Source of the DNA: a virus
Virus record (IMG/VR): IMGVR_UViG_3300050015_000276
Span: 1 to 64,000 of that record
Strand: one strand, 5' to 3'
Length of the DNA: 64,000 bases
Position numbers and translations under genes: made by a program
Notes under the pieces: model-generated
Databases searched by the model: none
What the model was told of the DNA's origin: nothing
Seen by the model: the letters and a program-made list of their open reading frames with translations, nothing else
Shown here: piece after piece, positions 44,545 through 63,667 of the stretch
Numbering within the stretch: the first letter of the stretch is position 1
How the letters are laid out: every line of letters begins with the position of its first letter

Positions 44545-44628
44545 TGTTCTTCCCAGTAATTACTGGGAAGGGTGCGTTATCATAAACAAAGACTTGACAT
44601 CCACCAAAGTATTTGATACCCTTGGTTC

Positions 44629-46221
44629 ATGAGCGCGATTACATATTCACCTCAACAGCAGGCAGTCTTGGATTTTACATCCAAGAATGGCCATGGCAAC
44701 TGCTTAATTACAGCCGTGGCCGGGTCTGGCAAGACTTTCACCCTTATGCAGGCAGTTCCTGGTTTAGAGGGATACATTGCCATTGCGGCTTACAATACAG
44801 CAATTGCCAACGAGATTGAAAGTAAACTCCAAGGAGTTCAGTTACAAGATGGAAGCCGTGTATATGTTGGAACAGTTCATCGGTTTGGACGCAAGGCTTT
44901 GTCTAAGGTTTATCCCAAGGGCAAATTACCTGCCCGTGGTGATAAGTCCAAGATTGACCAGATGATGGCATTGGTTTTCAATCCGAAAACCAAAGAAGTT
45001 GGCGTACCTCAGCATCTCCAGAGTTTTGCGAGGAAGTGTTACAATCTGGCACGTCAACAAGGCGCAGGTGTCTTACCTGAATTCCAGTTTTCCAATCAGG
45101 CAGCATGGCTTGATATGGTTGAACATTTTGATCTCCGTGATGATTTTGCCAATGCAGATGGCGATCTACCTCTGGATGTTGAACAGCTAGTCCGCGATGG
45201 CATTAACTGGGCTTGCCGTCTTATCAAATATGGCATTACAATCTTGGATAAACTTTGGGATTTCGAGGATATGATTTATGCTGTCCTCTACCAGAATCTC
45301 AGGATCGAACCAAACAATTGGGTCCTTGTGGACGAAGTTCAGGATATAAATCCTACTCGGAGAGCCTTGATTAAGAAGATGTTGGCGGTTGGTGGACGTG
45401 CAATCTTTGTTGGAGATCCAAAACAAGCAATATATGGATTTACTGGTGCCGATGCCAAATCATTCGAGAATATCCGAAAAGAATTTGATTGCACGGATTT
45501 GCCGCTCACGTGGTCATTCCGATGTGCAAAGACGATTGTTCGTTTTGTGCAGCAGTGGGTTTCCCATATTGAATCCCATCCTGATGCTCCTGAGGGAGAA
45601 GTGATTCAGACGGATGAACAGGGAATGTGGGAATTGAATCCAAATACAGATGATGCTATCCTTTGCCGCAATAATGCTCCTTTATGCCAGTTATTTTTTG
45701 AATTGTTGAAAAGAGGTATTCCATCTCATGTGGAAGGTAAGGACATTTCAGGAAAGCTACTTAAAATGGCCTCTCGCTGGCCTTCTTTGAAGTCCTTGGT
45801 TGCCCTTGGTGGAAAACTTGAAGAATATAAGGAACGTCAAATTCAAAAGGGATTACAATCTGGACGTGAAGATAAAGCGGAAGAAGTTGCTGATGTTGTG
45901 GATGCTATCCAGGCTGTGATTGCTGGTTTACCTTTTGGAAGCAAAGTTGAAGATCTGAAACGAGTTATCGCGGAAATGTTCGAAGATACCCAGGATGGAA
46001 AGAAACCAAAGAATTTAACACTTACAAGTATTCACCGTTCAAAGGGAAGAGAATGGAATCGTGTATTTTGGTATGGCCGCAATCGTTGGAACCCGAGCAG
46101 CTACGCTCGCCAAAAATGGCAAATGGAGCAAGAAACAAATCTACAATATGTCGCGGGAACTCGGGCGAAGATGACATTGGTGGATGTTAGTGTAGTTATT
46201 CCTCCAAAGAAAATGAGGTAA
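44629..46221 (+). CDS. UvrD/Rep-like superfamily 1 helicase
   Basis: AVAGSGKT, LVDEVQD, VGDPKQAIYGFTGA, LTWSFRC, ILCRNN, TSIHRSKGREW, YVAGTRAK. Confidence 0.93.
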   Translation: MSAITYSPQQQAVLDFTSKNGHGNCLITAVAGSGKTFTLMQAVPGLEGYIAIAAYNTAIANEIESKLQGVQLQDGSRVYVGTVHRFGRKALSKVYPKGKLPARGDKSKIDQMMALVFNPKTKEVGVPQHLQSFARKCYNLARQQGAGVLPEFQFSNQAAWLDMVEHFDLRDDFANADGDLPLDVEQLVRDGINWACRLIKYGITILDKLWDFEDMIYAVLYQNLRIEPNNWVLVDEVQDINPTRRALIKKMLAVGGRAIFVGDPKQAIYGFTGADAKSFENIRKEFDCTDLPLTWSFRCAKTIVRFVQQWVSHIESHPDAPEGEVIQTDEQGMWELNPNTDDAILCRNNAPLCQLFFELLKRGIPSHVEGKDISGKLLKMASRWPSLKSLVALGGKLEEYKERQIQKGLQSGREDKAEEVADVVDAIQAVIAGLPFGSKVEDLKRVIAEMFEDTQDGKKPKNLTLTSIHRSKGREWNRVFWYGRNRWNPSSYARQKWQMEQETNLQYVAGTRAKMTLVDVSVVIPPKKMR

Positions 46222-46705
46222 GATATTCCGAGGCTCTTTTTAGGGTTTCGGAATTGTCTTTGAATTGCCCCAATCCTCTATTACAAGCATCACATAATAA
46301 TCCTCGGATTGTTCCGGATATATGATTGTGGTCTACGGCTAATTTTTTATGGTTTTGTGGTTTCAAACATATAGCACAGACACCATTTTGTTTGGAAAAC
46401 ATATTATCGTATTCCTCAATAGAAATACCAAACATATTCCTCAGATATTGGTTCCTTTTGGTTCTTTTGTATTTTGGAGTTTTTTCGTATTTCTGTTTAT
46501 AGGCTTTATGTTGCGGAGTTTTAGAATATTCTTTGCTGTATTCTCGTTTACTATCGGAGTTATTATATTCTTTCCGACAAGAGATGCATCCATAATCTCT
46601 GGTATTTTTTAGAGTTGTTCCACAATTTTTACAAGGTTTTCCGTTGTAGGTTTTGGCGCCGGCGGCTTTGGCTTCTTTTCTGGACGAATAAATAGTTTCA
46701 GACAT
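46196..46705 (-). mobile_element. Free-standing EndoVII-type HNH homing endonuclease
   Basis: CKNC/CISC Zn finger, CAIC...LAVDHNH.SG.IRGLLC..CN.GLG; antisense to neighbours; late promoter TATAAATA (minus, 46773-46780). Confidence 0.88.
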
Positions 46706-46825
46706 TCGCGGTACCTCCGTACCACATTGTTTAGAGGTCAAGTGATACGCAAATATCACTTGACCTCACATATATTTATACAACCTCTATTGACATTCCA
46801 AATAAAATGTGAGATACTTGGGAGT

Positions 46826-46915
46826 ATGTTAAATTTGATGTATGTCGCCGGTACGCGTGCGAAAACCACGTTAGTTGATGTTATAGTTCCTATACCGTTA
46901 AGGAGATACAAATGA
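46826..46915 (+). pseudogene. Duplicated helicase C-terminal fragment (29 aa)
   Basis: LMYVAGTRAKTTLVDV versus helicase LQYVAGTRAKMTLVDV. Confidence 0.8.
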
Positions 46916-47117
46916 TAGATGATTTAGAGAAGTTGAAATTGAAAATCCGGGCGATGGGAAAACCAAAATGATTCACGAAGTAGAATGGAAACGGTCACGC
47001 TGGCAAGATTTGATTCACCCCAAAGCGTGGAAATGTTTTGCGGATACTCATAAATCTAATCCGTGGGCAGGACCTTGGTATTGGCGAAGTGTTAAGATTC
47101 ATTAAAGGACAAGCATT

Positions 47118-47321
47118 ATGGCTGAAATTTCTGACGAACGGATTGATGAAATTCTTTATGCTCCTACTGAGGCCTGGATGTTGGTAGAGGATGTCCAGGT
47201 ACTTGCTTCCTCAGTAAAGCAATATAGAGAGTTTATGGAGCGAGAAAGATTAAGATTGGAAAAGGCATTTCAGTCTCTAATCGGAAGAAGGATAAAATAT
47301 GGCGATAATGGTACCCGATAA
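47118..47321 (+). CDS. Hypothetical protein, tandem paralog A
   Basis: DERIDEILYAPTEAWML. Confidence 0.65.
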   Translation: MAEISDERIDEILYAPTEAWMLVEDVQVLASSVKQYREFMERERLRLEKAFQSLIGRRIKYGDNGTR

Positions 47322-47499
47322 ACGGATCGATGAAATTCTCCTTACACCTACTGAATTGTGGATGTTGGAGAAAGATGTCCGCTCACTTGCATTTGAAGTA
47401 AAACGTGATAGGAAGTTTATCCGTGAAATGTTGTTGGACGAAGCGTGCCGGACTACTGGTTTGTTTTCCAGCCGGCCGTCGGAGAATAAGGAGGAATAA
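47299..47499 (+). CDS. Hypothetical protein, tandem paralog B
   Basis: DKRIDEILLTPTELWML. Confidence 0.65.
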   Translation: MAIMVPDKRIDEILLTPTELWMLEKDVRSLAFEVKRDRKFIREMLLDEACRTTGLFSSRPSENKEE

Positions 47500-47850
47500 T
47501 ATGGTACTACGCCAAGATCATGAAATTTTGTTCTGACTTTTCTTGGAATGTAATATATTACATATTGTTGCCATTTAAAGTGGTTACATTCTGGGGATCC
47601 ATAGCTTGTATTGGCTGGTTCCTTTATGCTCTTGGTATATGGATTTGGCCGATCCTTTGGAGTTAATATGCAAAAAGAAATGACACTCTCCGAACATGCA
47701 GAAGCCTGGTGGAGTGACCAAGGTAATATAGTTCCGGAACCATATTCTGAAGAATGGGTGGCTATGTATGTGCAATGGCACACGTATGCCTTTAAGGATT
47801 TCCCAGATTAAGTCTTGACATCCATTAAAGTATTTGATACACTTGGGTAT

Positions 47851-48135
47851 ATGCGAGAAGAAATAACACCTGAAGAAATGGACTACTCTATCGAAAAAAT
47901 TCGGGAAATGAGAAAGCGGTGGGGCTTTGACGGTTTCACGGCGGACACATGTGGAAACTGCAAAGCAACCGTTAATGTGCTGAATGACATGCCTGGATGG
48001 TCTTGCCCATGCGGACATTACAATGTCCAGAGTTGGAGTAGTTGTCGGATTCCGCATGATACACCCATGTATGGTCCAAGCCGAGCGAAAATTTTAATGG
48101 CATATGGTGAGGAAATTCCTGGGTTCCGTTTGTGA
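47851..48135 (+). CDS. Zn-ribbon protein
   Basis: CGNC...CPCGH; behind TTGACATCC(47815) promoter. Confidence 0.6.
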   Translation: MREEITPEEMDYSIEKIREMRKRWGFDGFTADTCGNCKATVNVLNDMPGWSCPCGHYNVQSWSSCRIPHDTPMYGPSRAKILMAYGEEIPGFRL

Positions 48136-48150
48136 TTTGAGGAGAAGACT

Positions 48151-48375
48151 ATGATATCTATTAACATTACCGCCACCGTAGAATGTTCCGATTGTGCAAT
48201 TGAAATGGAAGTGGAATTGACACGGCTGTTTTCCACTTCGAGCAATATGTGGGATGATCGGAATGTTGAGACTCAATTGGTGAAGGCTGGTTGGGAAGAA
48301 AGTGGGGATAGTTGGATTTGTGATTCTTGTGTCCGTTGTGGTGAGGAAGTCTGGGATGAGGATGAGGAAGAGTAA
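48151..48375 (+). CDS. Acidic Zn-ribbon protein
   Basis: CSDC...CDSC, GGAG SD. Confidence 0.6.
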   Translation: MISINITATVECSDCAIEMEVELTRLFSTSSNMWDDRNVETQLVKAGWEESGDSWICDSCVRCGEEVWDEDEEE

Positions 48376-48446
48376 ATGACATTCATGTTCTTTCTTTTGT
48401 GCTTTTATTTTGGATTTAATATGGGCGAGATTTGTGAGAGGAACAA

Positions 48447-48782
48447 ATGAATATGACAGCATCATCCAAGGCACGTATTGAAGCGTGGTTTGACGAATTT
48501 ATCCGATCTGATTATGTGACGGGACTAACATCAGATAAGGACTCGGATTTGATTAATCACAGGGAACGTGCGGAAAGATGTTATAATGCCGCGGAATGTG
48601 GCGCCGATGGAAAGACACCTGCCGATTATATTGAGGATTGGCGTGAAGCATTACGTGCAATAATAAATGGACGTCCAGGCCATTATGTACCTGGACGATT
48701 TTTGGATGCTGTGGAAGACCATATTGATTCGGTGGAATCACAGCATGAATTTCAAGGATCTTTATTTCAGGAGATTGGATAA
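48447..48782 (+). CDS. Hypothetical protein
   Basis: 111-aa ORF, GAGG SD. Confidence 0.65.
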   Translation: MNMTASSKARIEAWFDEFIRSDYVTGLTSDKDSDLINHRERAERCYNAAECGADGKTPADYIEDWREALRAIINGRPGHYVPGRFLDAVEDHIDSVESQHEFQGSLFQEIG

Positions 48783-48855
48783 TATCCAGCCCTTCGGGGC
48801 TTGAGCGTGTTATGATAACACTTTCTTGAGTTCAGGTTCTCCAGACCCTCAATAA

Positions 48856-48950
48856 TCGCGTAGGACCGCTCTAGGTTGCATTTGTTAATACGGGCTGTGG
48901 GGTGATAAGGGGTCTACTGGAGTAATGCAACCTAGAGCGGTCCTACGCGA
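48856..48950. repeat. 27-bp perfect inverted repeat with 41-nt G-rich spacer
   Basis: TCGCGTAGGACCGCTCTAGGTTGCATT (48856-48882) / AATGCAACCTAGAGCGGTCCTACGCGA (48924-48950). Confidence 0.95.
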
Positions 48951-49140
48951 CCTTTGCGCATTTGAATTGTTTATGACGGGGCCTGTGGCCAGCAAATACT
49001 TCGGACATTGCAGATTGTGACAAATTATGGAGTTTACAAAATTGATTTAAGCCAGATATATTTTCTTGATGTCCATCTGGATTGGGTGGATTAACTACGG
49101 TATTTGTAATACGGTAAATATAATAAATATTGGTAGACAT
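48943..49140 (-). pseudogene. Internally deleted GIY-YIG homing endonuclease remnant
   Basis: YYIYRITNTV followed directly by NPDG..ISGLNQFCKLHNLS.SAMS.V..G.R..HK (NUMOD/HTH-like tail); AAGGA SD; TATAAATA (minus, 49200-49207). Confidence 0.6.
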
Positions 49141-49229
49141 TTTGTGTTCCTTTGTAACACGGAATGTGGTATGTGGTTTATTAGTGTAAGCCACATACCT
49201 ATTTATAGGAAAATAAAGAGGAACAAAAT

Positions 49230-50466
49230 ATGCAACCTACCAGTAGGGAAACGTTTATACAATACTGTAAAGCGAATTTAGGAGATGGAATTATACACAT
49301 CGAACTAACAGACGCCCAGGCTAATAATTGTGTGGATGACGCGCTTACGATGTGGAGAGAATACAGTTATGAGGGAACGCAGCGGACGTACCTTAAGCAC
49401 CAAGTGACGGCTCAAGATATGATTAACCACTGGATACCGTGTGACGATTCCATTATGTCAGTGGTAAGAATAATTCAATGCAACGAGGGAAATTTAAATA
49501 TTTTTGATGTCCGGTATCAACTCCGTTACTGTGTAGCGGCTTAAGGAAGTAATTTCTTAAGCAAACTCCGTTAATTGCTGGAAACTCCTTTCATAGAGGA
49601 CAATCAGCAGCCAAGCCAAGGAAACTCTTGGAAGGTTCAACGACTATGGCAATTGCCAGTAGGGTTCAAGTGGACTCGAAATGCGGAGCATCCAACAATC
49701 ATTGGATGGTGATATAGTCTGATCTCCTAGGTAACTAGGAGAGGTTAAATGGCAACGATTTAACCGCAACATAAATGTTACAAGACTTTTATAATTTCTC
49801 TAACGTTTCCATAAATGTTTGTGGCTTTTTCGAGTAATCGGAAAATGAAAACTCTGTTAATTGCTGGAAACTCCTTTCATAAAGGACAATCAGCAGCCAA
49901 GCCAAGAAAGTAATTCTTGGAAGGTTCAACGACTAGGATTTAATCCGTAGGGAATAGTATTCCCGAAATGCAGAGCATCCAGATTTCCTGGATGGTGATA
50001 TAGTCTGATCTCCTAGGTAACTAGGAGAGATTAAACGGTAACGGTTTAATCGTAACATAAATGGCAACATTACGTCATTACCATGGAGAAACTCCGGCTC
50101 ATTGATTGGCTCATGAACCCGGAACCCACAATATCTTTTGAGCGTCTTGCCAATCGCATCTATGTTAATGCGGATTGGGGATACAGAGTAAAGCAAGGAG
50201 ACTTCTTTGTATTCGAAGTATACCAATGGCTTGATGAACTTTCATATCCACGTATTTGGACAGATAGATGGTTAAAATCATATGCCACCTGTTTGATGCG
50301 GAGAAATTGGGGTTCTAATTTAAAGAAATTTAATGGTATCCAAACCCTTGGTGGTGTCCAATTAAACGGACAACAAATCTATGACGAAGCGATGGATGAA
50401 AAGAAAGATTTAGAAGATATCCTTTATCGTGATTATCAGATACCACCTAGATTGTTTATTGGCTAA
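49230..50466 (+). CDS. gp13: Neck protein gp13, spliced from exons 49230-49526, 49778-49812 and 50064-50466 (244 aa)
   Basis: FIQYCKANLG...IELTDAQ...CVDDAL; spliced junctions read FDVRYQLR-LQDFYNFSNVSM-QHYVITMEKL; WLKSYATCLMRRNWGSNLKKF.G..TLGGV.LNGQQIYDEA. Confidence 0.92.
49527..49777 (+). ncRNA. Group I intron (IA2-like), gp13 intron 1, 251 nt, no ORF
   Basis: P AATTGCTGGAAAC, Q AATCAGCAG, R TTCAACGACTA, S GATATAGTC; P1 CCGT/GCGG with U.G; P7.1 and P7.2; terminal G49777. Confidence 0.93.
49813..50063 (+). ncRNA. Group I intron (IA2-like), gp13 intron 2, 251 nt, no ORF
   Basis: Same P/Q/R/S elements; P1 CCAT/GTGG with U.G; P10 ATGTT/AACAT; terminal G50063. Confidence 0.93.
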
Positions 50467-50468
50467 TA

Positions 50469-50500
50469 TCTTCAGGACGGAATTAATTCCGTCCTGAAGA
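50469..50500. repeat. 32-bp perfect palindrome
   Basis: TCTTCAGGACGGAATT AATTCCGTCCTGAAGA. Confidence 0.95.
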
Positions 50501-50559
50501 ACCCGTTATCATAACGGTCGTTAATTGACATCCTCAATGTTCTTTGTTACCCTTGTTAT

Positions 50560-50820
50560 ATGATGAATAAATCACCCGAAACGAGAATTATTGCGGTCTC
50601 TCCAGGGCCACTTGGAAATTGGTCAAAAACTCGTAAGTTGTTTTGGAGTGGCGATCTTTTGCATATTGAGAGACCTGCCACACATCAAGAATTTATTAAT
50701 TCGCATCGGATTGATCCGGAAACCATTTTTTTGGCCCTAAATCAATTTGATTATTATCTTGTCCACTATGTTGGCAGGATAGATATCGTTGAATGGTTAA
50801 AATTGCGTGATGTATCATGA
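50560..50820 (+). CDS. Hypothetical protein
   Basis: First gene of the cassette with promoter 50525. Confidence 0.55.
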   Translation: MMNKSPETRIIAVSPGPLGNWSKTRKLFWSGDLLHIERPATHQEFINSHRIDPETIFLALNQFDYYLVHYVGRIDIVEWLKLRDVS

Positions 50821-51000
50821 CGACCCAAGAACGCATTGCATCTAACAGAGCCATGGAGGCCCGGATAGCTCCTATACTCAAAGCTAAAGCGGCGAAGGAG
50901 AATTTTAATTGTATTAGGACAGAGGTAAAACGAGAAAAGCGTTTATCCCGAATTAATTTTTTGTCTTGACATCCGCAATGTTCTTTGCTATCATCATTAC

Positions 51001-51420
51001 ATGCTAAGCATTGACGCCGAGAAAATTGCCTGGGACCTGATACAACAATACGCTCCAGGCTGGTCATTTGAATTTGACCGAGGCACTCGCCGCTGCGGCT
51101 GTTGCAATTATCGGAAACTCCAGATATCGCTCAGCCTTCAATATGTCCAATTGAATTCCGAGGAATGTGTGCGGAATACCGTTCTGCATGAACTGGCTCA
51201 CGCCCTTGCTGGATTTGCGGCACACCACGGACCTGATTGGCAATGGTGGTGCCGCAAGTTAGGTGCTCGTCCAGAACGCCTGAATACGGAAGCGGTGGTG
51301 ATCTATAATGTATTCGCAGATTGCCAGTGTGGACCGAATACGCACAAGAAAATGCGGATGCCTAAGGGTACACGGATTTGCCTCAGATGCCGCCAAGAAT
51401 TGACTTGGAGAAGGATATAA
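51001..51420 (+). CDS. SprT-like zinc metalloprotease
   Basis: RRCGCC, TVLHELAHALAG, HHGPDW, C-terminal CQC/CLRC. Confidence 0.88.
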   Translation: MLSIDAEKIAWDLIQQYAPGWSFEFDRGTRRCGCCNYRKLQISLSLQYVQLNSEECVRNTVLHELAHALAGFAAHHGPDWQWWCRKLGARPERLNTEAVVIYNVFADCQCGPNTHKKMRMPKGTRICLRCRQELTWRRI

Positions 51421-51422
51421 TC

Positions 51423-51770
51423 ATGATACAAGAACCGGTTGGTTATATTTTTACCACATGGGAACTTTCCACGTATGATGTTCTTGGGAACGCCCGTGAT
51501 GGATATGAAGTGAATGATTTTTATGCTGTGCATGTAGTGGAAATTAATATTCCACAAACTAGATACAATACTGGAACGAAATATGAATTTCTTGGTGCAG
51601 CTCCTACTGACCGGCAAATTAAAAAAGCTTTTGGTCTCCGATGCCAAATTCGTACCGAAGGAGATGACATGCAAATTTTTGTGGAACGTGAACGTGATGG
51701 ATATCCCATAGGACAAATGATTTGCATATCACATGAATCATTGAGTCCTGTCCGAAAGAAAAAGGCATAA
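51423..51770 (+). CDS. Hypothetical protein
   Basis: ATG 51423 with GGAG SD. Confidence 0.6.
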   Translation: MIQEPVGYIFTTWELSTYDVLGNARDGYEVNDFYAVHVVEINIPQTRYNTGTKYEFLGAAPTDRQIKKAFGLRCQIRTEGDDMQIFVERERDGYPIGQMICISHESLSPVRKKKA

Positions 51771-52216
51771 CATGCAGAGAAACCCAAATCGGTTAACTTC
51801 CAATCCTCTTAAGCTTCGTGAGGATATGGAATTTAAGGAAACTCACAAGACTCCAAACGGCCGGATTTTCAATTGTTGTAACAAAGTTGGTGCGCCAAAC
51901 GGTTGCAAACATGGCCGTTATTTTCTTCCGAAAGCCAGGTGGGACAAGTCTCTCAGAGATCACCGGTAATCCTGGGCGGAAACGCCCAAGACATCGTTAT
52001 CATAAGTGATTCCTATTTGACATCCATGATTTACTGTGCTATAGTATAACTATGAAAAGCTTACAACCTTTCAATAGTCAATATGACGCGATCCTGTGGT
52101 GTGTGGATAATGCGTGTGGTGAGTGTGTTGTCTTTCTTTCCGACTGGCGCCGGGCGGTTAGGCTAGCACCCATAGGCGGGAAATGGTATTGGGATTACGC
52201 GACATAGGAAAATCCG

Positions 52217-52842: not shown

Positions 52843-52846
52843 AGAT

Positions 52847-52917: not shown

Positions 52918-53017
52918 TAGAAAGGGAGAGCCGATCACTCTCCCTTTCCGCGATTCCTACGTATTATGATAACGCTTTCTTGTTGACATCCACTATAGTA
53001 TCTGTTATACTTTAAAT

Positions 53018-53242
53018 ATGAAACTTGATCGGCACGATAACCTGATCGTCCTCATCAACACATACAACGAGTCCAGTTCCCCGTCAGTTCCGCGAACCGA
53101 TGATGAACACTCCATCGAACGCAGCCGCGCGAAGATCGCCCTGGGCTCGATTCGGCGCAACTACACAGAGGGTGTGGATTACAAAGAGCTTTCGAACGGC
53201 GCATTGTGGCCGGTTTCCGCACCTGCGGGAAAGGTGGCGTAA
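53018..53242 (+). CDS. Hypothetical protein
   Basis: First gene behind promoter 52983. Confidence 0.55.
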   Translation: MKLDRHDNLIVLINTYNESSSPSVPRTDDEHSIERSRAKIALGSIRRNYTEGVDYKELSNGALWPVSAPAGKVA

Positions 53243-53243
53243 G

Positions 53244-54253: not shown

Positions 54254-54322
54254 GATTTGACATCCCTACAACCGTGTGCTATTATTAAGCATACTCGAAG
54301 CGTTACAGGAGAAATAAACAAT

Positions 54323-54628
54323 ATGAAAACTTATGATTATTTTGGCAACCTCGATTCTCCCTGGACTAACGGAAAGGCAACCGGTATGTTCCAGAAGGAA
54401 AAGATTGATCCTACTCTTTTCAAGATTAATGCCATCAAGGCACTCCGCGAGTGGGGAGAAACCACTCTTACCGTTAACATCGGACTGAAAGAGGCGAAGG
54501 ATTTTATCGAAGTCCTGATCGAACGCCAACGCAAGGAACGGCTTACGGAAACTGTCCGTAAAGCCTTGGTTGATTCGGGAGTTTCATTTATCGAGTATTC
54601 GGAAGTCAAGGACACGATTTGCTGGTAG
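54323..54628 (+). CDS. Protein with ribosomal bL12 C-terminal-like motif
   Basis: KINAIKALREW...IGLKEAKDFIE. Confidence 0.7.
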   Translation: MKTYDYFGNLDSPWTNGKATGMFQKEKIDPTLFKINAIKALREWGETTLTVNIGLKEAKDFIEVLIERQRKERLTETVRKALVDSGVSFIEYSEVKDTICW

Positions 54629-55438: not shown

Positions 55439-55535
55439 CAAAAAAGGAAATGTGGATCCACATTTCCTTTATAAACTATTGTTATGATAACAATTTCTAG
55501 TTGACATCCAGGCTCGATAATGTTACATTGGTAAC

Positions 55536-55868
55536 ATGATGAAACACACGCCGAAGCAAGAAAAGAGATTTGCGGCCCTTGCCACCAAGATGGGCATTGA
55601 TGTTGTGGATGCCGAAAGCATTTGCCGATGTGCCTCTGGTATTTGGGATTACATTGGCTTTGATTGCCTCGAAGCCAATGGAGGTAAGGACATGCGTCGA
55701 TCCGAGGTCATTGAGGTTGTTATGGATGCAAGTCACATGACCACGGGTGATAGCAGGAAGCGGCTCACCGCGCCGGCCTTGGCACTTCTTCAGTCATATC
55801 AGCATTCCGATGACATCGCCGCACTCCTCAAGGAATTCGAATTCACCCACGCATTATACGGTATGTAA
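55536..55868 (+). CDS. Hypothetical protein
   Basis: First gene behind promoter 55501. Confidence 0.65.
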   Translation: MMKHTPKQEKRFAALATKMGIDVVDAESICRCASGIWDYIGFDCLEANGGKDMRRSEVIEVVMDASHMTTGDSRKRLTAPALALLQSYQHSDDIAALLKEFEFTHALYGM

Positions 55869-55880
55869 AAGGAAAACATC

Positions 55881-56240: not shown

Positions 56241-56450
56241 GAGAAACCACATGGTGGAAACGAGTCAGAGGTTCCCCAATGGGTGCGCTTCAAGACGTTG
56301 GTGTGATGGAACTAGATCGTCGGAGAGATCGTAGTATAGTATAACCATTATAAACCAACATACAATACCGGAGAGGTCTGCCTCTCCGGTATTTCCGGCC
56401 GCAAGAATACGTTATCATAACACAATCCACATTGACATCCATTATTCACT

Positions 56451-56672
56451 ATGCTATACTTGTATTGTATGAAACAAAAAGACCCGTTATATGAAATTCT
56501 GATCCAGTTTGTGAGTCTGAACCTGAATACACTTACCGGATTGGAACAGAAGATTATGGACATTGCCTGCGTGCGTGGTGAGTATCTCATGCCGACCAAT
56601 TGCCATGCAGAGTTTATGCCGCCGGTCAAAATTGATCCAATTTACAGGAGCAAAGCTCCATGCAAGAATTAA
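56451..56672 (+). CDS. Hypothetical protein (start probably 56469)
   Basis: Behind promoter 56432. Confidence 0.45.
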   Translation: MLYLYCMKQKDPLYEILIQFVSLNLNTLTGLEQKIMDIACVRGEYLMPTNCHAEFMPPVKIDPIYRSKAPCKN

Positions 56673-56914
56673 AAAAGCTTATGACACCACCAGTGCCGAA
56701 GCCTGTCCTTTATCTGGTCCATTTTTGCGACCAGTGCTATCTTTCCACCTGGGATGGCAAGAGTAGTCGGGATGATCTGCGTCCTTATTACCGGTCGGGG
56801 AATTCGGAACTCTGCGAGCGGGGTCCGACTCGGTTCGATACCGTGGAAGAAGCATACAAGTCAGTACGCCTTGATGGCGATCATTTTGAAATAAAGGAAA
56901 GGGTAAAGGTATGA
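56660..56914 (+). CDS. Hypothetical protein
   Basis: AGGAG SD; CDQC. Confidence 0.55.
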   Translation: MQELKKLMTPPVPKPVLYLVHFCDQCYLSTWDGKSSRDDLRPYYRSGNSELCERGPTRFDTVEEAYKSVRLDGDHFEIKERVKV

Positions 56915-57132
56915 CAACGCAATATGGAGAGATTGTTTTTGATGAAAACGGCTACGCGGCGGGGGCTATTTGGATTCCTTCGTGCACGAAGCGGACATTG
57001 ACTCAGAATTGGCGAGTAAAGTCTTTTACAAGCCGTCCTGGAGAGTCCAACACAACGTTGGTCAAGACTGAAAGCGAAGCACGGGAATCTGTCCTTGCCA
57101 CTGGATGTTTCGAGGTTGAAAATGCCAATTAA
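56911..57132 (+). CDS. Hypothetical protein
   Basis: Coupled overlap with the previous gene. Confidence 0.55.
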   Translation: MTTQYGEIVFDENGYAAGAIWIPSCTKRTLTQNWRVKSFTSRPGESNTTLVKTESEARESVLATGCFEVENAN

Positions 57133-57460
57133 CACGCAAGATTACATAAACGCCACGTCCGGAATCGGTCCACTCGCAAAGGAGTGGACCGATAAGCCGC
57201 ACAGGCTCGTATACGACCTAGTCCGGGAACTCCTTGCAGTCCAAAGGGTTCTCGATACACAAACTCCAAAGACAGTACTTGTATTTGGCGATTGCTCCAG
57301 CGGCCGCTTTTATTTGGTATTGAAAGACAGGAGTGACGGAAATGCGCGCATTTATTATCGTTCCGGTTCTCAGATATTACATGATACTTGGCCCACCTGG
57401 TTCTCTTCCAGAGAAGCGGCCGAGAAGGATATAAAAGACTCCGAGATCTTTGCGATCTAA
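57095..57460 (+). CDS. Hypothetical protein (start probably 57122)
   Basis: GAGG SD before ATG 57122. Confidence 0.55.
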   Translation: MPLDVSRLKMPINTQDYINATSGIGPLAKEWTDKPHRLVYDLVRELLAVQRVLDTQTPKTVLVFGDCSSGRFYLVLKDRSDGNARIYYRSGSQILHDTWPTWFSSREAAEKDIKDSEIFAI

Positions 57461-57601
57461 TAGACCATAGGCCAATATACCATACCATGTTGTTGGAAGA
57501 ATAACCATATGGAGTTTCATATAACATGGTATGGTATACGAAAAGCGATATAACAATATCATTGTGCGTTGCAACGGATGTATTTGTTATTAGGAGAATA
57601 A

Positions 57602-57790
57602 ATGAGAAAAGCCGATTCCGGTAGGCCTCACGGTAATTATGATGGTAAGGATAAAGAACAGTGTTGTTCCTGTGGTAAGGAGACCAACTATCTAATGGAA
57701 AATGGTGAATGTATGAGGTGTTGGAGTTCCTATGCAAGTATATTCCAATTCAGTGGAATAAAGGATAGTTATATTAAAAAGGAACAATGA
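57602..57790 (+). CDS. Small Zn-ribbon protein
   Basis: CSCG...CMRC, AGGAG SD. Confidence 0.5.
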   Translation: MRKADSGRPHGNYDGKDKEQCCSCGKETNYLMENGECMRCWSSYASIFQFSGIKDSYIKKEQ

Positions 57791-58020
57791 GTTCTAGAGT
57801 TCTAGAGTTCTGGAGAGTTCCAAGCTGTGGCGGTATCTGTCCGTATCTGTCCTTCAAACCCACAATCCATCGGAGAAACACAAAGACCTCCGTGTCCTTG
57901 CAAGGCCTCATTATCATAACGGCCTCCGTATCCTCTGTTATCATAACGTCCTCTTCCATTTCATACTCACGTTATGATAAACGAATCTTGTTGACATCCA
58001 CCCTACAATTTGATACACTT

Positions 58021-58299
58021 ATGAATATGCAAGCACGCAAAAATTACGTACACTTCGAAGATCGGGTTGATTTGAAGGAGACTCCAAACAAGGATATTCC
58101 ACTCAATCAGATGTTCGCCGGGTCCATCGGGTCCATCGGCTCCTATGAGGACCGGCTCTTTATCAAATTGGAAGCCGACGCCGGCCGTTCCTGGATCTAT
58201 TGCGTCGATGCCCCGCTTGGCGCCACCGGCGAATACAGGACAGATCAACCGGACGTTACCAATTACAGGCCCGTGATTTCCCTGACCGCCAAGATTTGA
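58021..58299 (+). CDS. Hypothetical protein, paralog of 55182-55438
   Basis: IPLNQMFAG...RLFIKLE...YRPVISLT; behind promoter 57991. Confidence 0.6.
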   Translation: MNMQARKNYVHFEDRVDLKETPNKDIPLNQMFAGSIGSIGSYEDRLFIKLEADAGRSWIYCVDAPLGATGEYRTDQPDVTNYRPVISLTAKI

Positions 58300-58340
58300 A
58301 AGGCCTTGACATCCACCACAACGTGTGAGACAATATACCT

Positions 58341-58733
58341 ATGATACTCACTATCAATGCAATGAAAGAAGCCGGCCGGGACATCGTTCTGGATGACCTG
58401 ACCATCCGGGTGACAGATGTTCCGCTGGACCGGACCAGCGATGTGGAATACTATCGCAATAAGTATTTGACGCAGGTGGAGGAAGTGTCCAAAGTCAATG
58501 CCGAACTCCGCAGTGTCCAGGATATGCTGACCGCCGAACGGAACGCCAATGCCGGAACCGTATCGCTGGCCCTTGTCCGGGATTGGCTCAATACCGTCCG
58601 GGATGGCGCCGTGTATTCCGCGGTGGAACGGATCAACCTCATCAAGGCTGTCCGGTTGCTCACCTACATGGGCCTGAAAGAATCCAAGGATCTGGTGGAA
58701 TCGTTTATTACCGTCAACTATAACCACTCCTAA
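58341..58733 (+). CDS. Coiled-coil protein with bL12 C-terminal-like motif
   Basis: RINLIKAVRLLTYMGLKESKDLVE. Confidence 0.75.
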   Translation: MILTINAMKEAGRDIVLDDLTIRVTDVPLDRTSDVEYYRNKYLTQVEEVSKVNAELRSVQDMLTAERNANAGTVSLALVRDWLNTVRDGAVYSAVERINLIKAVRLLTYMGLKESKDLVESFITVNYNHS

Positions 58734-58746
58734 TCATCCATTCCGT

Positions 58747-58778
58747 ACCGGAGGCCTCTCACGCAGGAGGCCTCCGGT
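58747..58778 (+). terminator. GC-rich hairpin, near-duplicate at 61142-61165
   Basis: ACCGGAGGCCTC-8 nt-GAGGCCTCCGGT followed by TTCC. Confidence 0.75.
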
Positions 58779-58888
58779 TTCCTCTATTACCTACGTTATG
58801 ATAACGCAAGCTTGGTTTCTGTTATGATAACGCGGCCTTCCACCATTATTTTCTTGCATTCCATAGAATACTCTGTTACCCTTATAAC

Positions 58889-59164
58889 ATGATGAAAAAG
58901 ACGACCGACCCAGCCCTCAAAGCCGCGTTGAAGCTGATTGCCAAGGCCCTCACGGATGCAGAGCCGTATTCCGCCTACCGCATTCGGAACGTCCGCTACA
59001 ACCTGCTACGGGCCCGTGGGATTGCAGCCAATCGGACTTACGAACGCACCAATCCGGAAATCGAGAAGTTCGTCCATGTCCGGCCCGTGACCGTTCGCCA
59101 CATCAACCGCATGTCCTCCGGGAACAAGGGCCGCACGGCCTTGTCCATGGCGCTTGCTGCGTAG
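58889..59164 (+). CDS. Basic hypothetical protein
   Basis: Behind a variant promoter TTGCATTCC (58854). Confidence 0.55.
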   Translation: MMKKTTDPALKAALKLIAKALTDAEPYSAYRIRNVRYNLLRARGIAANRTYERTNPEIEKFVHVRPVTVRHINRMSSGNKGRTALSMALAA

Positions 59165-59231
59165 AGATCACACGGCATCACCGGGGTCCGTAGTGGACCC
59201 CGGCAACCCAGCGGCGTCAATTGGAGGTGCT

Positions 59232-59534
59232 ATGCAAAGACTACGAATCAAGAAGGCCGTGCTAGTGTACCAAGCTGGCATAGCTAACGTGTTCACAGTA
59301 CGGAGCTTTAATATGGCAGACTTTGGACGGGATGGCGAGCGCATTCTGCAAGGGGACTTTCGAACATGCGAATGTTTCGCCCGTGGTCTAGTGGCTGCCG
59401 GTGTCCATGTGACTAGCGCCCACTGCAACCAAGCGGGTGATATTGCTAGTGCGCACTGGCTTGAGGGCTTGGAGAGTGCCCCATTCTTTGAGTCAATGGT
59501 CCCAGTGTATGGGATGACAGACAGAGTTAAGTAG
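59232..59534 (+). CDS. Hypothetical protein
   Basis: GGAGG SD before ATG 59232. Confidence 0.65.
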   Translation: MQRLRIKKAVLVYQAGIANVFTVRSFNMADFGRDGERILQGDFRTCECFARGLVAAGVHVTSAHCNQAGDIASAHWLEGLESAPFFESMVPVYGMTDRVK

Positions 59535-59571
59535 AGGCTCCAGCTAAGCGGCAGTCCGAGCTAAGATTCCT

Positions 59572-59766
59572 ATGCGCCCAACACATCATATCCTTCATCC
59601 CGCTGTTGGATGCAATAAGTCAGGCGAGGTGCGTTATCCTCGCCTGACTTCCGTAATGGTAGAGCCATTTGGAAATAGTATGGTTCAGCTTACATTTCCT
59701 GGTGGTGAATCCATTGCAGTGTGGGATGCCGCCATTGCAGTAAAAGAACTAAGGAGAATCAAATGA
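59572..59766 (+). CDS. Hypothetical protein
   Basis: 64-aa ORF. Confidence 0.45.
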   Translation: MRPTHHILHPAVGCNKSGEVRYPRLTSVMVEPFGNSMVQLTFPGGESIAVWDAAIAVKELRRIK

Positions 59767-59939
59767 AAGAACGATTACGGAAGATCCTACCGGATACACC
59801 TCTCCAAGGACCTGGTTGGTCCCTGAACTTCTGGCCTTTGATTGGATTGGTATCCATGGCCATTCCATGGGCCTTAACAATCTTGATAATTTTCCTTGTG
59901 TTGCATATCCTGGCCAATGTTCCATTCGTGGTTCTCTGA
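59763..59939 (+). CDS. Small membrane protein
   Basis: AAGGAG SD, ATG 59763, hydrophobic C-terminus. Confidence 0.55.
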   Translation: MKERLRKILPDTPLQGPGWSLNFWPLIGLVSMAIPWALTILIIFLVLHILANVPFVVL

Positions 59940-59953
59940 TACCGTTTTGGTAA

Positions 59954-60310
59954 TTATGAATTATTTCTGAGATAGTGAATGGCTTTTTCTAAGAGTTCAA
60001 TACTATCATTGAAGCTTCCAAGTGCCATGTTACACTTCTGGCAAAGTAAAGAACGAATTTTTCCTGTGATGTGATCGTGGTCCACAGCTAGTTTTTTGAC
60101 TTTTCCTTTCCATGTAACTGTTTCGAGATTTCCACAAATAGCACATAAAGAATTTTGTTTTTTCATTAGAGAGTCAAACTCAGTTGGGGAGATTCCAAAA
60201 CGTCTTTGGCGGCCAAGTGCCACTGCACGACCAGGATGTTTTATGTTGTAACGATCTCTTCGTTCTTTTCCTAGTCTTTTTATGTTGGAGAGTTCTTCAA
60301 GTGTTATCAT
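59954..60310 (-). mobile_element. Second EndoVII-type HNH homing endonuclease
   Basis: CAICG...KKLAVDHDH.TG.IRSLLC..CN.ALG; antisense; CTAAATA late promoter. Confidence 0.88.
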
Positions 60311-60526
60311 TCGTTATTCTATTTAGCGCATTTGGGAATCGCGAATAGCGAATGGAGTTTTATCCTCAAGGGCACGTTATTATAAGTGGTTCTTGCCTTT
60401 AAATGCGCGTTTAATGAGTGGGGCCCTTGTTACCCCCTTACCCCCGCTCACAAATGCAACCTACCCCTGTAGGATCGTCAAGAAACAGCTATTGACAAAC
60501 GATCATGAACACTGTAATATGGTCCT

Positions 60527-60733
60527 ATGATGAAAAACGTGATAGAACCGATGAGCCCCATGATAAAACAGTGCATTACTGTTAGCCGATCCTTTGTAAA
60601 GGAGAGTATCTGTCGGCTTTTGGTCCGCCTCCTTGGGCTTAAGCCGATACCTTATACTGCCTGGGAAGTTCTCGGTGAAGGTGGCCGGGATCATGAGTCT
60701 TTTAATAGGTCGCGCCAGGAGGAGAGTCTATGA
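60527..60733 (+). CDS. Hypothetical protein
   Basis: Behind TTGACA(60492) promoter. Confidence 0.45.
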   Translation: MMKNVIEPMSPMIKQCITVSRSFVKESICRLLVRLLGLKPIPYTAWEVLGEGGRDHESFNRSRQEESL

Positions 60734-61011
60734 GCCCCACAATGAAGAAACAGGATGCCTCCTCTGCCATCGCGTTGTCCTTGGCCGCGGAGGTAGTAGA
60801 TCAAATAACAATCATCCTTTCCAGTGTTGATGATGCCATGTCATCCACAGATTTGGCAGCATCACACCCGGCCCGCATCAATTTGCTGGATATCAAGGCT
60901 GCGGCACTCAGGATATCGAGCCGTTGTAACCAGACCAATTCGGTGTTCCAGCGTACTGGTATCCGATTGGGCCGTGGTTCCTTCGATGCCATCTGCGATA
61001 ACATGTATTAA
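60730..61011 (+). CDS. Stand-alone HisKA/DHp-like helical hairpin without the phospho-His
   Basis: LAAEVVDQITIILS...HPARINLLDIKAAALR. Confidence 0.55.
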   Translation: MSPTMKKQDASSAIALSLAAEVVDQITIILSSVDDAMSSTDLAASHPARINLLDIKAAALRISSRCNQTNSVFQRTGIRLGRGSFDAICDNMY

Positions 61012-61336
61012 AGCCTCCAATTGGAGGCCATACACCAGTTATGATAAGCGATTCTTGTTGACATCCACGATGAAGCGTTCGCCGACAGGTTTGGCTATCT
61101 CCGAGTTGTAGTTTGCTCCGTATCGGTCCAATAGCAGAGAGCCGGAGGCCTTGCAAGGCCTCCGGTTTTCCTCAAGGCCCGTGTTATCATAACAGAAGCT
61201 TGACACGATCCCAGCGATCCTCCAGAGGGGCCCTGCTACCCTATCAACCCTAGTGGCAGGATCGATCCTAGAGCGAACCTGCGCGATTATTTTGACAGTT
61301 GACAAAGGCCCCGCGACACTGCTATCATGAGGTTGT

Positions 61337-61531
61337 ATGAAACCCAAGAAACTGAAATACTTCACAACCCGTAAGTATATGGGAGATGATGCCTACTCCT
61401 GGGCTGTGTTCCGCAAGGGTGTTAGCAACCCGATCTGTTCTGGCTGTTCCAAAAACGAGGCCCGGTACCATGCGGGAGAGATCGAGAAGAATTACATCCA
61501 GATGTTGACTGACCAGGGTGCCAAAGTATGA
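61337..61531 (+). CDS. Hypothetical protein
   Basis: Behind TTGACA(61300) promoter, GAGG SD. Confidence 0.6.
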   Translation: MKPKKLKYFTTRKYMGDDAYSWAVFRKGVSNPICSGCSKNEARYHAGEIEKNYIQMLTDQGAKV

Positions 61532-61776
61532 CAATCACCGAACTGGCGTCCTCCGTTAACAAGGCAGTGTACTTTGTGGCCGGAGATCTCAAATTCACCT
61601 GCATGGTCACGGATGCCCGTATGTCATGGGGTAAGCCACAATTCCAGATCAGACCAGTGACCGGGTTGGGTACTCGGTGGGTCGAGTTCTCCTCAATCGA
61701 ACCCGTCGAATCCATTCCACAGATCAAAAAACCCTTGACAACCGTTTCATACTCTGCTAAACTGGTCCTACGATGA
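61528..61776 (+). CDS. Hypothetical protein
   Basis: Coupled overlap. Confidence 0.55.
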   Translation: MTITELASSVNKAVYFVAGDLKFTCMVTDARMSWGKPQFQIRPVTGLGTRWVEFSSIEPVESIPQIKKPLTTVSYSAKLVLR

Positions 61777-62377
61777 AACGTGAAAGCTACCGACACACAA
61801 CGAACGCCTATTATGAAAACCGGGCCGCAAGCCGACCCCGCCAAGTGTGGAAGAAAGCCAAGATAGATGGACAGCCCAGCCGGCGCTTTGCCGCAGCCAA
61901 TGGTGAGATCGGCGCCATTCCGGTCCATGTGAATCCTCGGGTCGTGTAGTCCAACAAGTTTGGGGCCGATAACGCCGTGCCGTTGCCGCAAGAGCCGTCC
62001 ACGGAAGGTCCGGCCCCAATTCGTACACCAATAAGGAGAATGTCATGAAGAATACAAACGATTTCGCCGTCAGGCGCGGCCGGACCTTCACCACGTTTTC
62101 GACTTCCATAGCCGCCGCGGCCTACCAGAATGTTACGCTCGGATAGGTCCTGATGGTCCGGACCGCATCGGGTTGGAAGAACCTGTTCTAGAAGTCCAAG
62201 TTTGTGGTTGCCGGGAGGTAGACATCCATAGTGAATGGAGGCTGGCTCTGAACCCCAGCCTCCATTTTCCGGTCTATAACTCACTTATCATAACGGGACC
62301 TTGGCGATCTAATAGCCAACGATCTAATAGCATGTATACTACTTGACAATCCATATACATTCTGATACACTTACCCT

Positions 62378-62581
62378 ATGATCGACATGCAGAATTTCAT
62401 GAAAAGGCCAGACTCCTTCGACATGAAGATTGCTATGGTCAATGGAAGTCCGGTCTGTATATTCCGGGATTGCCATTTGGACAAGCCAGGTATGGAGATG
62501 GTTTTCCCGAATGCTCCAGTTGTCACGTCTCCATTGGATGCCTGGGACCTGGCACTCCGTGAAGATGAGGATAAGTATTAG
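62378..62581 (+). CDS. Hypothetical protein
   Basis: Behind TTGACAATCC...TGATACACT promoter (62344). Confidence 0.6.
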   Translation: MIDMQNFMKRPDSFDMKIAMVNGSPVCIFRDCHLDKPGMEMVFPNAPVVTSPLDAWDLALREDEDKY

Positions 62582-62915
62582 CCATGGAGCGAAAATACTA
62601 TATTCCGTTTGTCATGGAGGTGACAGTGGTATCCAGGCCTCCAATGCCTTGGGCTTTGCTCTATGATGGAAAAGAATCCACCAATCTGGAAATCTTACCT
62701 GGAGGCCTGTTTCTAATAGGCCTATTGGTCTCCGTATGGATATCATCTCCATAAGGAGATGGAAGGATGCGTTATGATAAGAGTATCTAATAGAATGGAA
62801 GGATCTGTTATGGTAACAAATGGAACTAATAGCCACATGCTTTGCTTATGATAACGCGACCTTGAACCAAAGGAAACGCCCGGGCCTCGGAGGCCCGGGC
62901 GTCGGTCGGAGTGGA

Positions 62916-63356
62916 TTACTCGGTGACGGTCAGGTCGGCGACGGTCTCGGGAGCAGGCCCCTCGATCAGCTTCGGTTCGGTATTGACGGGCGGAGCGGTG
63001 CGCTTGGACTTCGCTTCGCGCTTCGGTTTCGCTTCCTTCTTGGCTTTCGGCTCGACAACGGCGACGGCAGCCTTGGAGGCAGACGCGGCGAGCTTGAACA
63101 CGGACAGGTTGTAGATGCCCGGGGTGTTTTTGACTTTCGCCGACAGGTTGCGCCCGATGAAATACGGCATATATTTCTTGCCCCGGAGGGACTGGTTGGC
63201 GGTGATCAATTGCTTGGAGGACAGCTTGGTCTCGCCCTTGTGGAACGCGATGATATCCTGAATGATCTTGAACTGGTCGGTGGATAGCGCGTACCCGCGG
63301 AATAGCGTGTGCGGAGTCCCCTTCTCAGTCGTCCCGTCGATAATCTTGAAAGACAT
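62916..63356 (-). CDS. GC-rich gene for a basic protein with K/A/P-rich tail (possible DNA binder)
   Basis: AGAGGAG SD; minus-strand TTGACC...TGATACACT promoter about 63405-63433; PKAKKEAKPKREAKSKR tail. Confidence 0.75.
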   Translation of the reverse strand: MSFKIIDGTTEKGTPHTLFRGYALSTDQFKIIQDIIAFHKGETKLSSKQLITANQSLRGKKYMPYFIGRNLSAKVKNTPGIYNLSVFKLAASASKAAVAVVEPKAKKEAKPKREAKSKRTAPPVNTEPKLIEGPAPETVADLTVTE

Positions 63357-63667
63357 GTGTTTAATTCTCCTCTGTTTTCGTTTGTACTGTTTCAGTACTC
63401 TATAAGTGTATCAAATGCGGGGACGTGGTCAAGCGTTTTTGGTAAGAAAAAGGCGAAGCCGAAGCGAAAGCCGCATTAAAGTATTTTAATGTTAAAAAGC
63501 TTGACATTCCATCGGTTCTATTGCGCAAGCTTGCGTTATCTGTTTCCTTTTCCAAGCTTGCGTTATCATAAGCGAAGCTTGCGCTGCCAAGGTCACGTTA
63601 TCATAAGCGAAGCTTGGAACCAAAGGAAAGGGGGATCCTTTTGATCCCCCGATCCGTTTCTATTAGG

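Follow-up and report, generated by a model that had tools for sequence, protein, structure and literature searches.

A conserved 29-bp palindromic site on promoter-plus-stem-loop cassettes of an uncultured T4-like phage, and a linked candidate regulator family

Introduction

Early genes of T4-type phages are, in the textbook account, controlled by promoter strength and sigma appropriation. Promoter-plus-stem-loop (PeSL) cassettes have been described from the T4-type phages RB49/phi1, T4/PST, and KVP40/nt-1; these cassettes have an AT-rich stretch upstream of the -35 element and a Shine–Dalgarno sequence at the end, and no palindrome is mentioned in either report (Arbiol et al., 2010, PMC2839356; Comeau et al., 2014, PMC4122927). 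The middle-mode promoters of T4, which combine a MotA box with AsiA sigma appropriation, have been reviewed (PMC2988021). Here we analyze the first 64 kb (64,000 nucleotides; “the window”) of virus record IMGVR_UViG_3300050015_000276, hereafter G000, in which PeSL-type cassettes at the head of small accessory genes carry a palindromic box, GTTAT[C/G]ATAAC, and a small basic protein, P0001, is a candidate for its reader. The reading that we favor, at a probability of about one half, is that a phage-encoded dimer, most probably a member of the P0001 family, would read a 29-bp operator on this subclass of early cassettes. Relatives of G000 are named G001 and G002, and L-numbers denote metagenome loci or contigs.

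G000 is a single contig of 179,687 bp with direct terminal repeats. The first 30 kb encode T4-type baseplate proteins (gp5 OB domain, gp6, gp8, and a baseplate wedge protein, by Pfam), and the phage is T4-like, uncultured, and presumably virulent. The guanine-plus-cytosine (GC) content rises from ~0.35 to 0.40–0.51 across 40–65 kb and returns to 0.33; this rise marks a hyperplastic accessory block, to which the box promoters are confined. Against cultured phages, 50–58 kb of the window had no megablast match, and tblastn of an 898-amino-acid (aa) open reading frame (ORF) aligned solely at its lysozyme domain.

The box and its 29-bp site

With up to one mismatch allowed, the box (GTTATNATAAC) has 23 matches in the window, vs. 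3.9 ± 2.1 in shuffled sequences, and 0 of 100 shuffles reach 23. These include all 21 coordinates given in a preliminary description of this DNA; the two further matches (28450 and 60376) are both T-centered. The match at 28450 lies inside a baseplate gene and is probably due to chance; that at 60376–60386 (GTTATTATAAG) has full CAAG-N5 and N5-CTTG flanks (23 bits) and is a real site. The whole genome (179.7 kb) has 30 matches, and the C/G-centered ones all fall within 37,741–63,607. The “genome-scale” regulon of the preliminary description is thus too broad, in that the sites are limited to one block of ~26 kb and many identical early promoters elsewhere have no box.

The 11-bp palindrome described earlier is also too short: it forms the central part of a 29-bp palindrome with the consensus (C)AAG-N5-GTTATSATAAC-N5-CTT(G). 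In an alignment of 78 sites from the window, G001, and six metagenome contigs, the information content is 1.7–1.9 bits at each core position and 0.6–0.9 bits in the symmetric outer arms, which are (C)AAG (-14 to -11) and CTT(G) (+11 to +14); there is weak C/G symmetry at -7/+7, and conservation is nil past ±15. Taken separately, the window, G001, and the metagenome loci each yield this pattern, and the last show the full form CAAGGTCC-N-GTTATSATAAC-N-GGACCTTG. A 29-bp weight matrix yields 25 sites of at least 10 bits in G000 vs. 0 in the shuffled genome; 22 of the 25 are inside the block, and one further site is at 64,633, just past the window. The motif strings were found in no relevant paper in the literature.

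Covariation between the two arms at spacer positions is near expectation (139 observed vs. 130.8 ± 8.8; z 0.9, p 0.19), and complementarity between arms is no greater within a site than between sites. Because the arms lack within-site covariation, the symmetry reflects a shared consensus of the kind that a symmetric protein would bring about, rather than hairpin pairing. Inner and outer half-sites are ~1 helical turn apart, an arrangement in which each subunit could touch two successive major grooves on one face of the DNA. Tandem boxes are spaced 26–27, 34–38, and 46–49 bp apart (mode 36), in steps of about one helical turn. A protein operator is very probably what the box represents, namely a conserved, position-fixed site of the type read by a dimeric DNA-binding protein, and to this extent the earlier idea of a regulator site is upheld.

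Promoters and hairpins of the cassettes

The order within a cassette is a terminator-like hairpin, the box, a near-consensus promoter, and the ATG. The -35 sequence TTGACATCC has 18 exact copies in the window, all on the + strand, of which 8 have a box 7–10 nt upstream and 10 do not. The gap of 9–10 nt between box end and TTGACA that had been reported at 50525, 52017, 52983, 55501, 56432, 57991, and 61058 was confirmed at every one of these positions. Assuming that transcription starts at the ATG, the box center would lie at about -50/-51, and the whole site would extend from about -65 to -37. The CTT(G) arm nearest the promoter lies flush against the -35 (CTTG-TTGACA) or, at 61200, merges with it (cTTGACA).

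Twelve of 16 tested 60-nt stretches upstream of boxes fold at -15 to -33 kcal/mol (z -2.9 to -5.9), and all eight hairpin positions named in the preliminary description are among these strong folders. The hairpins are GC-rich and terminator-like, mostly with TTTCC-type tails; a strict consensus terminator scan picks up few of them because such T-tracts are short.

Across the whole G000 genome, the promoter pattern TTGAC(A/T), 16–18 nt, TAnnnT, 4–9 nt, ATG/GTG is matched at 38 + strand and 4 - strand positions. With few exceptions, the spacer is 17 nt long, TGn precedes the -10, and the start codon follows the -10 by just 6–8 nt, which leaves no space for a Shine–Dalgarno sequence, so that the early transcripts of G000 are predicted to be leaderless. 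Promoters of the same form without a box are found at 39017, 40137, 43130, 47815, 50966, and 140222, several with the same TTGACATCC; because this architecture mostly occurs without a box, the box is best seen as an optional add-on control module on a promoter subclass. Further pattern promoters are at 145 and, beyond the window, at 114675 and 176098. TCC is conserved directly after the -35 of the G000 early promoters, TTGACA(TCC).

Individual cassettes, all on the + strand, conform to this plan to different degrees. The first (37681–37798) has a hairpin (37681–37720), a box (37741–37751), a weak -35 (TTGCTT, 37760–37765), a -10 (TACCTT, 37783–37788), and the ATG (37796) of a radical-SAM gene that extends to 38728. 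The second (44549–44631) has a hairpin, a box with one mismatch (44576–44586), the -35 TTGACATCC at 44594 with a gap of 7 nt, a -10 (TACCCT) at 44617, and the ATG (44629) of a UvrD-like helicase gene (to 46221). At 50469–50562, a hairpin (50469–50500; -23.7 kcal/mol) precedes a box (50505–50515), a -35 at 50525 (gap 9), a -10 at 50548, and a predicted leaderless ATG at 50560. The cassette at 51970–52054 comprises a hairpin, a box (51996–52006), a -35 at 52017 (gap 10), a -10 (TATAGT) at 52040, and an ATG at 52052; that at 52921–53020 comprises a hairpin, a box (52963–52973), a -35 at 52983 (gap 9), a -10 (TATACT) at 53006, and an ATG at 53018. A hairpin at 55443–55470, a box at 55481–55491, a -35 at 55501 (gap 9), and a -10 (TACATT) at 55524 make up the cassette at 55443–55538, the ATG of which (55536) opens a 110-aa protein common to G001. 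The next cassette (56364–56471) has its hairpin at 56364–56393, box at 56411–56421, -35 at 56432 (gap 10), -10 (TATACT) at 56455, and ATG at 56469.

More than one box is present in two cassettes. Three boxes (57910, 57937, and 57971; spacing 27 and 34) stand before the -35 at 57991 (gap 9), -10 at 58014, and ATG at 58027 in the cassette at 57910–58029, and two boxes (58795 and 58821; spacing 26) follow a hairpin (58747–58778; -27 kcal/mol) in the cassette at 58747–58891, with a -35 (TTGCAT) at 58854, a -10 (TACCCT) at 58877, and an ATG at 58889 that opens a 91-aa protein conserved in G001, L007, L008, and L013. The cassette at 62240–62380 contains a hairpin, a box (62284–62294), two CTAATAG copies (62309 and 62324), a -35 at 62343, a -10 at 62366, and an ATG at 62378, which opens a 67-aa protein conserved in L007, L008, and L011. 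Other units are incomplete: a perfect box behind a hairpin at 48809–48819 has no recognizable + strand promoter downstream; the cassette at 61004–61066 has a hairpin, a box (61038–61048), and a perfect TTGACATCC at 61058 (gap 9) but no -10 or ORF behind it, and so has decayed; and at 61142–61205 a hairpin (-33 kcal/mol) is followed by a box (61183–61193; 31 bits) and by TTGACA at 61200 (gap 6), the start of this -35 being the CTTG arm itself.

The box thus marks accessory early genes and sits in PeSL-like hairpin-promoter cassettes. The earlier count of 1–4 small ORFs per cassette is roughly right, although some units are longer because of internal box-less promoters (50966, 54257, and 58306). 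Box- or PeSL-driven genes with recognizable domains include those for the radical SAM protein (37796–38728), an AAA ATPase (40582–41598), and a SprT-like metalloprotease (51001–51420).

Conservation in relatives and metagenome loci

An exact-pattern scan of IMG/VR identified G001 (IMGVR_UViG_3300050015_000167; 176,794 bp, complete, with terminal repeats), which has 17 perfect boxes, all within a single ~20-kb block of elevated GC content that spans the ends of the record; nine of these boxes lie 9–10 nt before TTGAC(A/T), in the same predicted leaderless layout. G002 (175,698 bp, 98% complete), which was reached via the UvrD-like helicase, has about a dozen boxes in the equivalent block, mostly T/A-centered and with arms and CAAG flanks unchanged. 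A change of specificity in G002, the P0001 homologs of which are more divergent, was considered and rejected, given that the arms are identical and merely the center is T/A. Both G001 and G002 keep P0001 homologs together with boxes. Seven metagenome contigs were recovered by P0001 similarity alone (49–68% identity), and none of them lacks boxes: the three longest have 11 boxes within 7.0 kb, 11 within 6.0 kb, and 10 within 3.8 kb, the chance expectation being ~0.15 boxes per such contig by our own base-composition estimate rather than from a tool. The sites are conserved, then, in three near-complete genomes (G000, G001, and G002) and seven contigs.

The cassettes have clearly spread by copying, and a box without function could have been carried along as a passenger of the duplicating cassette. 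Such a passenger would hardly behave as the box does: hairpins and N5 spacers vary between copies while the core stays fixed at 1.7–1.9 bits, boxes are also present singly or in arrays without a promoter, and the motif is retained in phages whose shared proteins are only 50–76% identical. We therefore regard a functionless box as highly improbable.

Comparison of G000 with G001 shows collinear genes on the flanks of the block (AAA ATPase, helicase, and gp13 exons), while inside it about eight genes are shared and reordered or inverted (G000 50.5–64.5 kb). DNA-level similarity between the two blocks consists of the cassettes alone, at 40–75 bp each. In keeping with the earlier proposal that the shared cassette doubles as a recombination unit, the cassettes are the only DNA homology between shuffled, unrelated genes when cassette order is compared with G001.

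Such a pattern, with PeSLs documented to recombine and to make mini-circles (PMC2839356; PMC4122927), would also be expected if the palindrome served mainly in recombination or DNA structure (as a cruciform or, like integron attC sites or PeSLs in mini-circle formation, as a point of crossover for cassette exchange), any effect on transcription being incidental. However, the within-site covariation of arms that a hairpin or cruciform would need is absent, and neither tyrosine (PF00589) nor serine (PF00239) recombinases were detected in the complete G000 genome (positive controls in 14/14 and 12/14 genomes, respectively). In addition, both the fixed distance of 9–10 nt to the -35 and the phasing of tandem arrays speak for a protein that is bound to DNA and works with RNA polymerase. 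Homologous exchange at the cassettes is likely, but it needs a conserved cassette and no palindrome. A primary role of the palindrome in recombination or DNA structure accordingly seems improbable.

P0001 as the candidate reader

The gene for P0001 (62916–63356, - strand; 146 aa, isoelectric point (pI) 9.9) had been named as one candidate for the cognate regulator, and its candidacy has gained support: box arrays are present at 7/7 loci recovered by P0001 similarity, and paralogs have boxes at their own promoters. The gene has a Shine–Dalgarno sequence and is therefore not leaderless; it also has its own predicted promoter (63432–63405, - strand; TTGACC, 16 nt, TG-n-TACACT) and its own intrinsic terminator (62875–62903, - strand; a 13-bp stem, then TTTCCTTTGG). 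The two strongest boxes (63562–63607; 31 bits each, spacing 35) lie 130–175 nt upstream of the -35 of this promoter, just after the terminator (63630–63650, - strand) of a neighboring minus-strand gene. Three promoter-less boxes (62771–62855; spacing 36 and 38), interleaved with CTAATAG, stand between two convergent terminators just 3' of the gene.

Type-1 P0001 genes have two boxes ~230–275 nt upstream and an array of 2–5 boxes after the 3' end (L007, L008, and L011). Type-2 paralogs (G001 5352; L007 5363, - strand) have 2–3 boxes placed 20–45 nt upstream of their own -35, which is suggestive of the usual layout for autoregulation. The linkage between P0001 and box arrays is suggestive only, as homologous arrays in kin are not independent.

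Other repeats accompany these genes. An inverted repeat, ACATTAAA-N4-5-TTTAATGT, is conserved ~60 nt upstream of the P0001 promoter (about 63440–63465, - strand; also in L007, L008, and L011), and GTTAAC-N4-GTTAAC lies between the two upstream boxes of the P0001 genes in L007, L008, and L011; both are candidates for additional control elements of the regulator gene. Of the 36 genome copies of a second palindrome, the 7-bp CTAWTAG, 9 cluster in a 1.65-kb stretch around the P0001 gene, where they are interspersed with the boxes (62309, 62324, 62713, 62787, 62826, 63660, 63703, 63736, and 63951). The interleaving recurs in L007, L008, L011, L012, L013, and G001, and a second factor, or a P0001 paralog, may bind at CTAWTAG.

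Two P0001 paralogs are encoded in G001 and two more distant ones in G002. A word-indexed search of 5.8 billion proteins returned 8 relatives, and an exhaustive profile search returned 102 P0001-family clusters at 50% identity, all metagenomic and mostly viral; IMG/VR, searched with close and mid-distance P0001-family alignments, gave G001 alone. P0001 and 92 relatives match no Pfam family, P0001 itself matches no NCBIfam family, and P0001 and 9 other block proteins have no PHROG match. Similarly, tblastn of P0001 against cultured phages found no match, the P0001-family profile against PDB sequences gave noise (E >0.6), and the ESM Atlas contained only unnamed viral clusters for P0001.

For structure prediction by AlphaFold2, an alignment of 11 sequences gave a predicted local distance difference test (pLDDT) score of 55; the model used was instead made with 93 sequences, in which residues 1–94 have pLDDT above 90. 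The predicted fold comprises a beta-hairpin, helix, strand, helix, short helix, strand, and helix, followed by a disordered Lys/Ala/Pro-rich tail. Foldseek with this model against PDB and BFVD found nothing significant. Winged-helix proteins (BlaI, Rex, Fur, STIV F93, MecI, and Zur) match at Z 3.0–3.7, with EF-hand chains equal or higher (Z 4.7); a winged-helix assignment was not adopted, as Z is at most 4.7 with mixed folds. The 94-residue folded domain has a pI of 10.1 and the tail is Lys-rich; P64, I67, and N70, which are nearly invariant in the family, are in or beside the predicted third helix. From this model, P0001 is a plausible DNA-binding protein.

The disordered Lys/Ala/Pro-rich tail would also suit a histone-H1-like or nucleoid-type architectural protein, for which the boxes would nucleate coating, bridging, or insulation (for example, a terminator roadblock). 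The promoter-less arrays with a 36-bp period between convergent terminators, the placement of boxes always after terminators, and the density of more than 20 sites within 26 kb are in line with such a role. On the other hand, coating would not require the exact phasing of 9–10 nt to the -35 seen in 16 cassettes, and there is no evidence of spreading; we consider a purely architectural P0001 an alternative to be taken seriously, though an unlikely one.

P0001 is one member of a syntenic module, common to all box-bearing loci, that includes P0112 and proteins of 67, 82, 58, and 91 aa. P0112 (122 aa; G000 64106–64474, - strand, equivalent to L014:106–474 (-)) adjoins P0001 and is kept beside it at 58–92% identity in L007, L008, L011, and G001; a degenerate box (center 64633) is situated ~160 nt upstream of its start. 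Neither P0112 nor the 67-, 82-, 58-, and 91-aa module proteins have a family match. P0112 may read the box in place of P0001 or act as a partner of the reader, and the other module proteins are formal candidates as well.

A host protein as a possible reader

Palindromic sites phased to a promoter are typical of host regulators, and the GC content of the block (0.40–0.51 vs. about 0.35) suggests foreign, possibly host-derived DNA. The box could, on these grounds, be the operator of a host transcription factor (Fur/PerR-like or another global regulator), copied to tie accessory genes to a host signal. However, a scan for AAG-N5-GTTATSATAAC-N5-CTT in one genome per species across 185,579 prokaryote species found 81 loci, taxonomically scattered and with a single site each, whereas ~70 are expected by chance according to our own calculation. 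No genome among these species has more than one exact extended site, a search that degenerate sites or an unsampled host would escape. Furthermore, the densest box arrays surround a phage gene family and not random promoters. The Fur/PerR-like lead of the preliminary description finds no support in these chance-level single sites, and we regard a host operator as unlikely.

Within the phage, ~50 ORFs across 37–64.5 kb, mostly inside the block, were scanned against Pfam, and no classical regulator family was found among them; HTH_3 is absent from the G000 genome.

Proposed mode of action

We propose that a dimeric phage protein would dock on the two-fold symmetric (C)AAG-N5-GTTAT-S-ATAAC-N5-CTT(G) operator, which would be an addition to a subclass of the PeSL-type cassettes that head small accessory genes of the GC-elevated block. 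The bound protein would probably repress, thereby providing timed shut-off, or dosing, of a possibly toxic accessory gene set as the protein accumulates. Between repression and activation, the former is somewhat favored, because the promoters are already near-consensus, because the site reaches the -35 and covers the DNA that the alpha C-terminal domains of RNA polymerase use, and because the regulator itself would be made from an early-type promoter. The earlier interpretation as a site for an activator or for contact with these domains is for the same reasons (TTGACA, 17 nt, TGn-TAnnnT, with the CTT(G) arm abutting or overlapping the -35) not the one that we favor.

The arrays of 2–5 sites around the regulator genes might act as high-affinity nucleation or autoregulatory sites, and the promoter-less arrays beside these genes as nucleation, looping, or titration sites. 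The conserved 40–75-bp cassette would in addition provide a homology patch for gene exchange between related phages.

Several points weigh against a P0001-family dimer as repressor. A site centered near -50 could equally serve an activator. The box-bearing loci are kin with a syntenic module, so that co-occurrence of P0001 and boxes could be inherited linkage, and P0112 and the 67-, 82-, 58-, and 91-aa module proteins are linked to boxes equally with P0001. The type-1 P0001 promoter is 130–175 nt from its nearest boxes. The best structural matches of P0001 reach only Z 4.2–4.7 (VIA-align), with winged-helix and EF-hand chains mixed, and the host of the phage may be missing from the 185,579 species scanned.

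A more speculative extension, which we hold to be rather doubtful, is that the P0001 family would represent a new class of regulators that recognize specific DNA sequences and bear a histone-H1-like tail, dimerizing on the 29-bp palindrome, assembling on arrays phased at half-integral helical turns, and switching off or insulating a mobile GC-rich island of leaderless cassettes, with island and regulator traveling together among T4-like phages.

The analysis defines a putative operator to base resolution with a named candidate reader. If the proposal holds, it would give a function to an entirely unannotated viral protein family, and accessory-gene islands would carry their own control system while shuffling between phages.

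Other features of the G000 genome

Two paralogous small proteins (54257–54628 and 58341–58733, + strand) show weak similarity to the C-terminal domain of ribosomal protein L7/L12 (E 2e-4 and 1.5e-6, respectively), and a homolog is encoded in G001 (6227–6562); they could be a phage mimic of the ribosomal stalk protein. An endonuclease VII-like gene (59954–60310, - strand; Pfam E 8e-23) lies inside the + strand cassette block, as does a second ORF (46196–46759, - strand); the two match one endonuclease VII-like gene of G001 and probably represent mobile nuclease genes. Beyond the window, a 5-kb stretch at 95–100 kb has a GC content of 0.59 vs. ~0.35 for the genome.

Comparison with described systems

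The MotA box of T4 middle promoters, at -30, takes the place of the -35. The G000 arrangement would be analogous in that prereplicative promoters with a short box upstream of the -10 form a temporal subclass, set apart by the phage factor that reads the box; it differs in that the -35 is an intact consensus and the palindrome is centered near -50. MotA_activ and AsiA had no match in G000, a weak negative in that the controls for both searches were silent.

C1 of phage P1 is a phage repressor with many dispersed operators, and such systems maintain lysogeny. As with C1, many scattered promoters would answer to a single phage protein through a repeated operator, some of the sites being close to the gene for that protein. 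Unlike in P1, the G000 operator is long, symmetric, and upstream of the -35 rather than over it, and the phage is presumably virulent.

The closest likeness is to PeSLs: a stem-loop terminator immediately before an early promoter of the sigma-70 type (17-nt spacer), a unit that is repeated between small ORFans in hyperplastic regions, and a cassette that is the only conserved DNA between shuffled genes of relatives. Decayed half-cassettes are also present, and the unit at 61004–61066 resembles the “half PeSLs” of Comeau et al. (2014; PMC4122927). In the G000 subclass, by contrast, a 29-bp palindrome with G/C-containing arms replaces the AT-rich stretch, the ATG is 6–8 nt after the -10 with no Shine–Dalgarno sequence, such that the transcript is apparently leaderless, and a linked candidate regulator gene family accompanies the cassettes. 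A dedicated operator/regulator layer on a subset of early cassettes has not, to our knowledge, been described for PeSLs. What is novel in G000 is the proposed upstream 29-bp operator, the predicted leaderless start, and the linked, previously unannotated candidate regulator family; the rest is of the known promoter-plus-stem-loop type.

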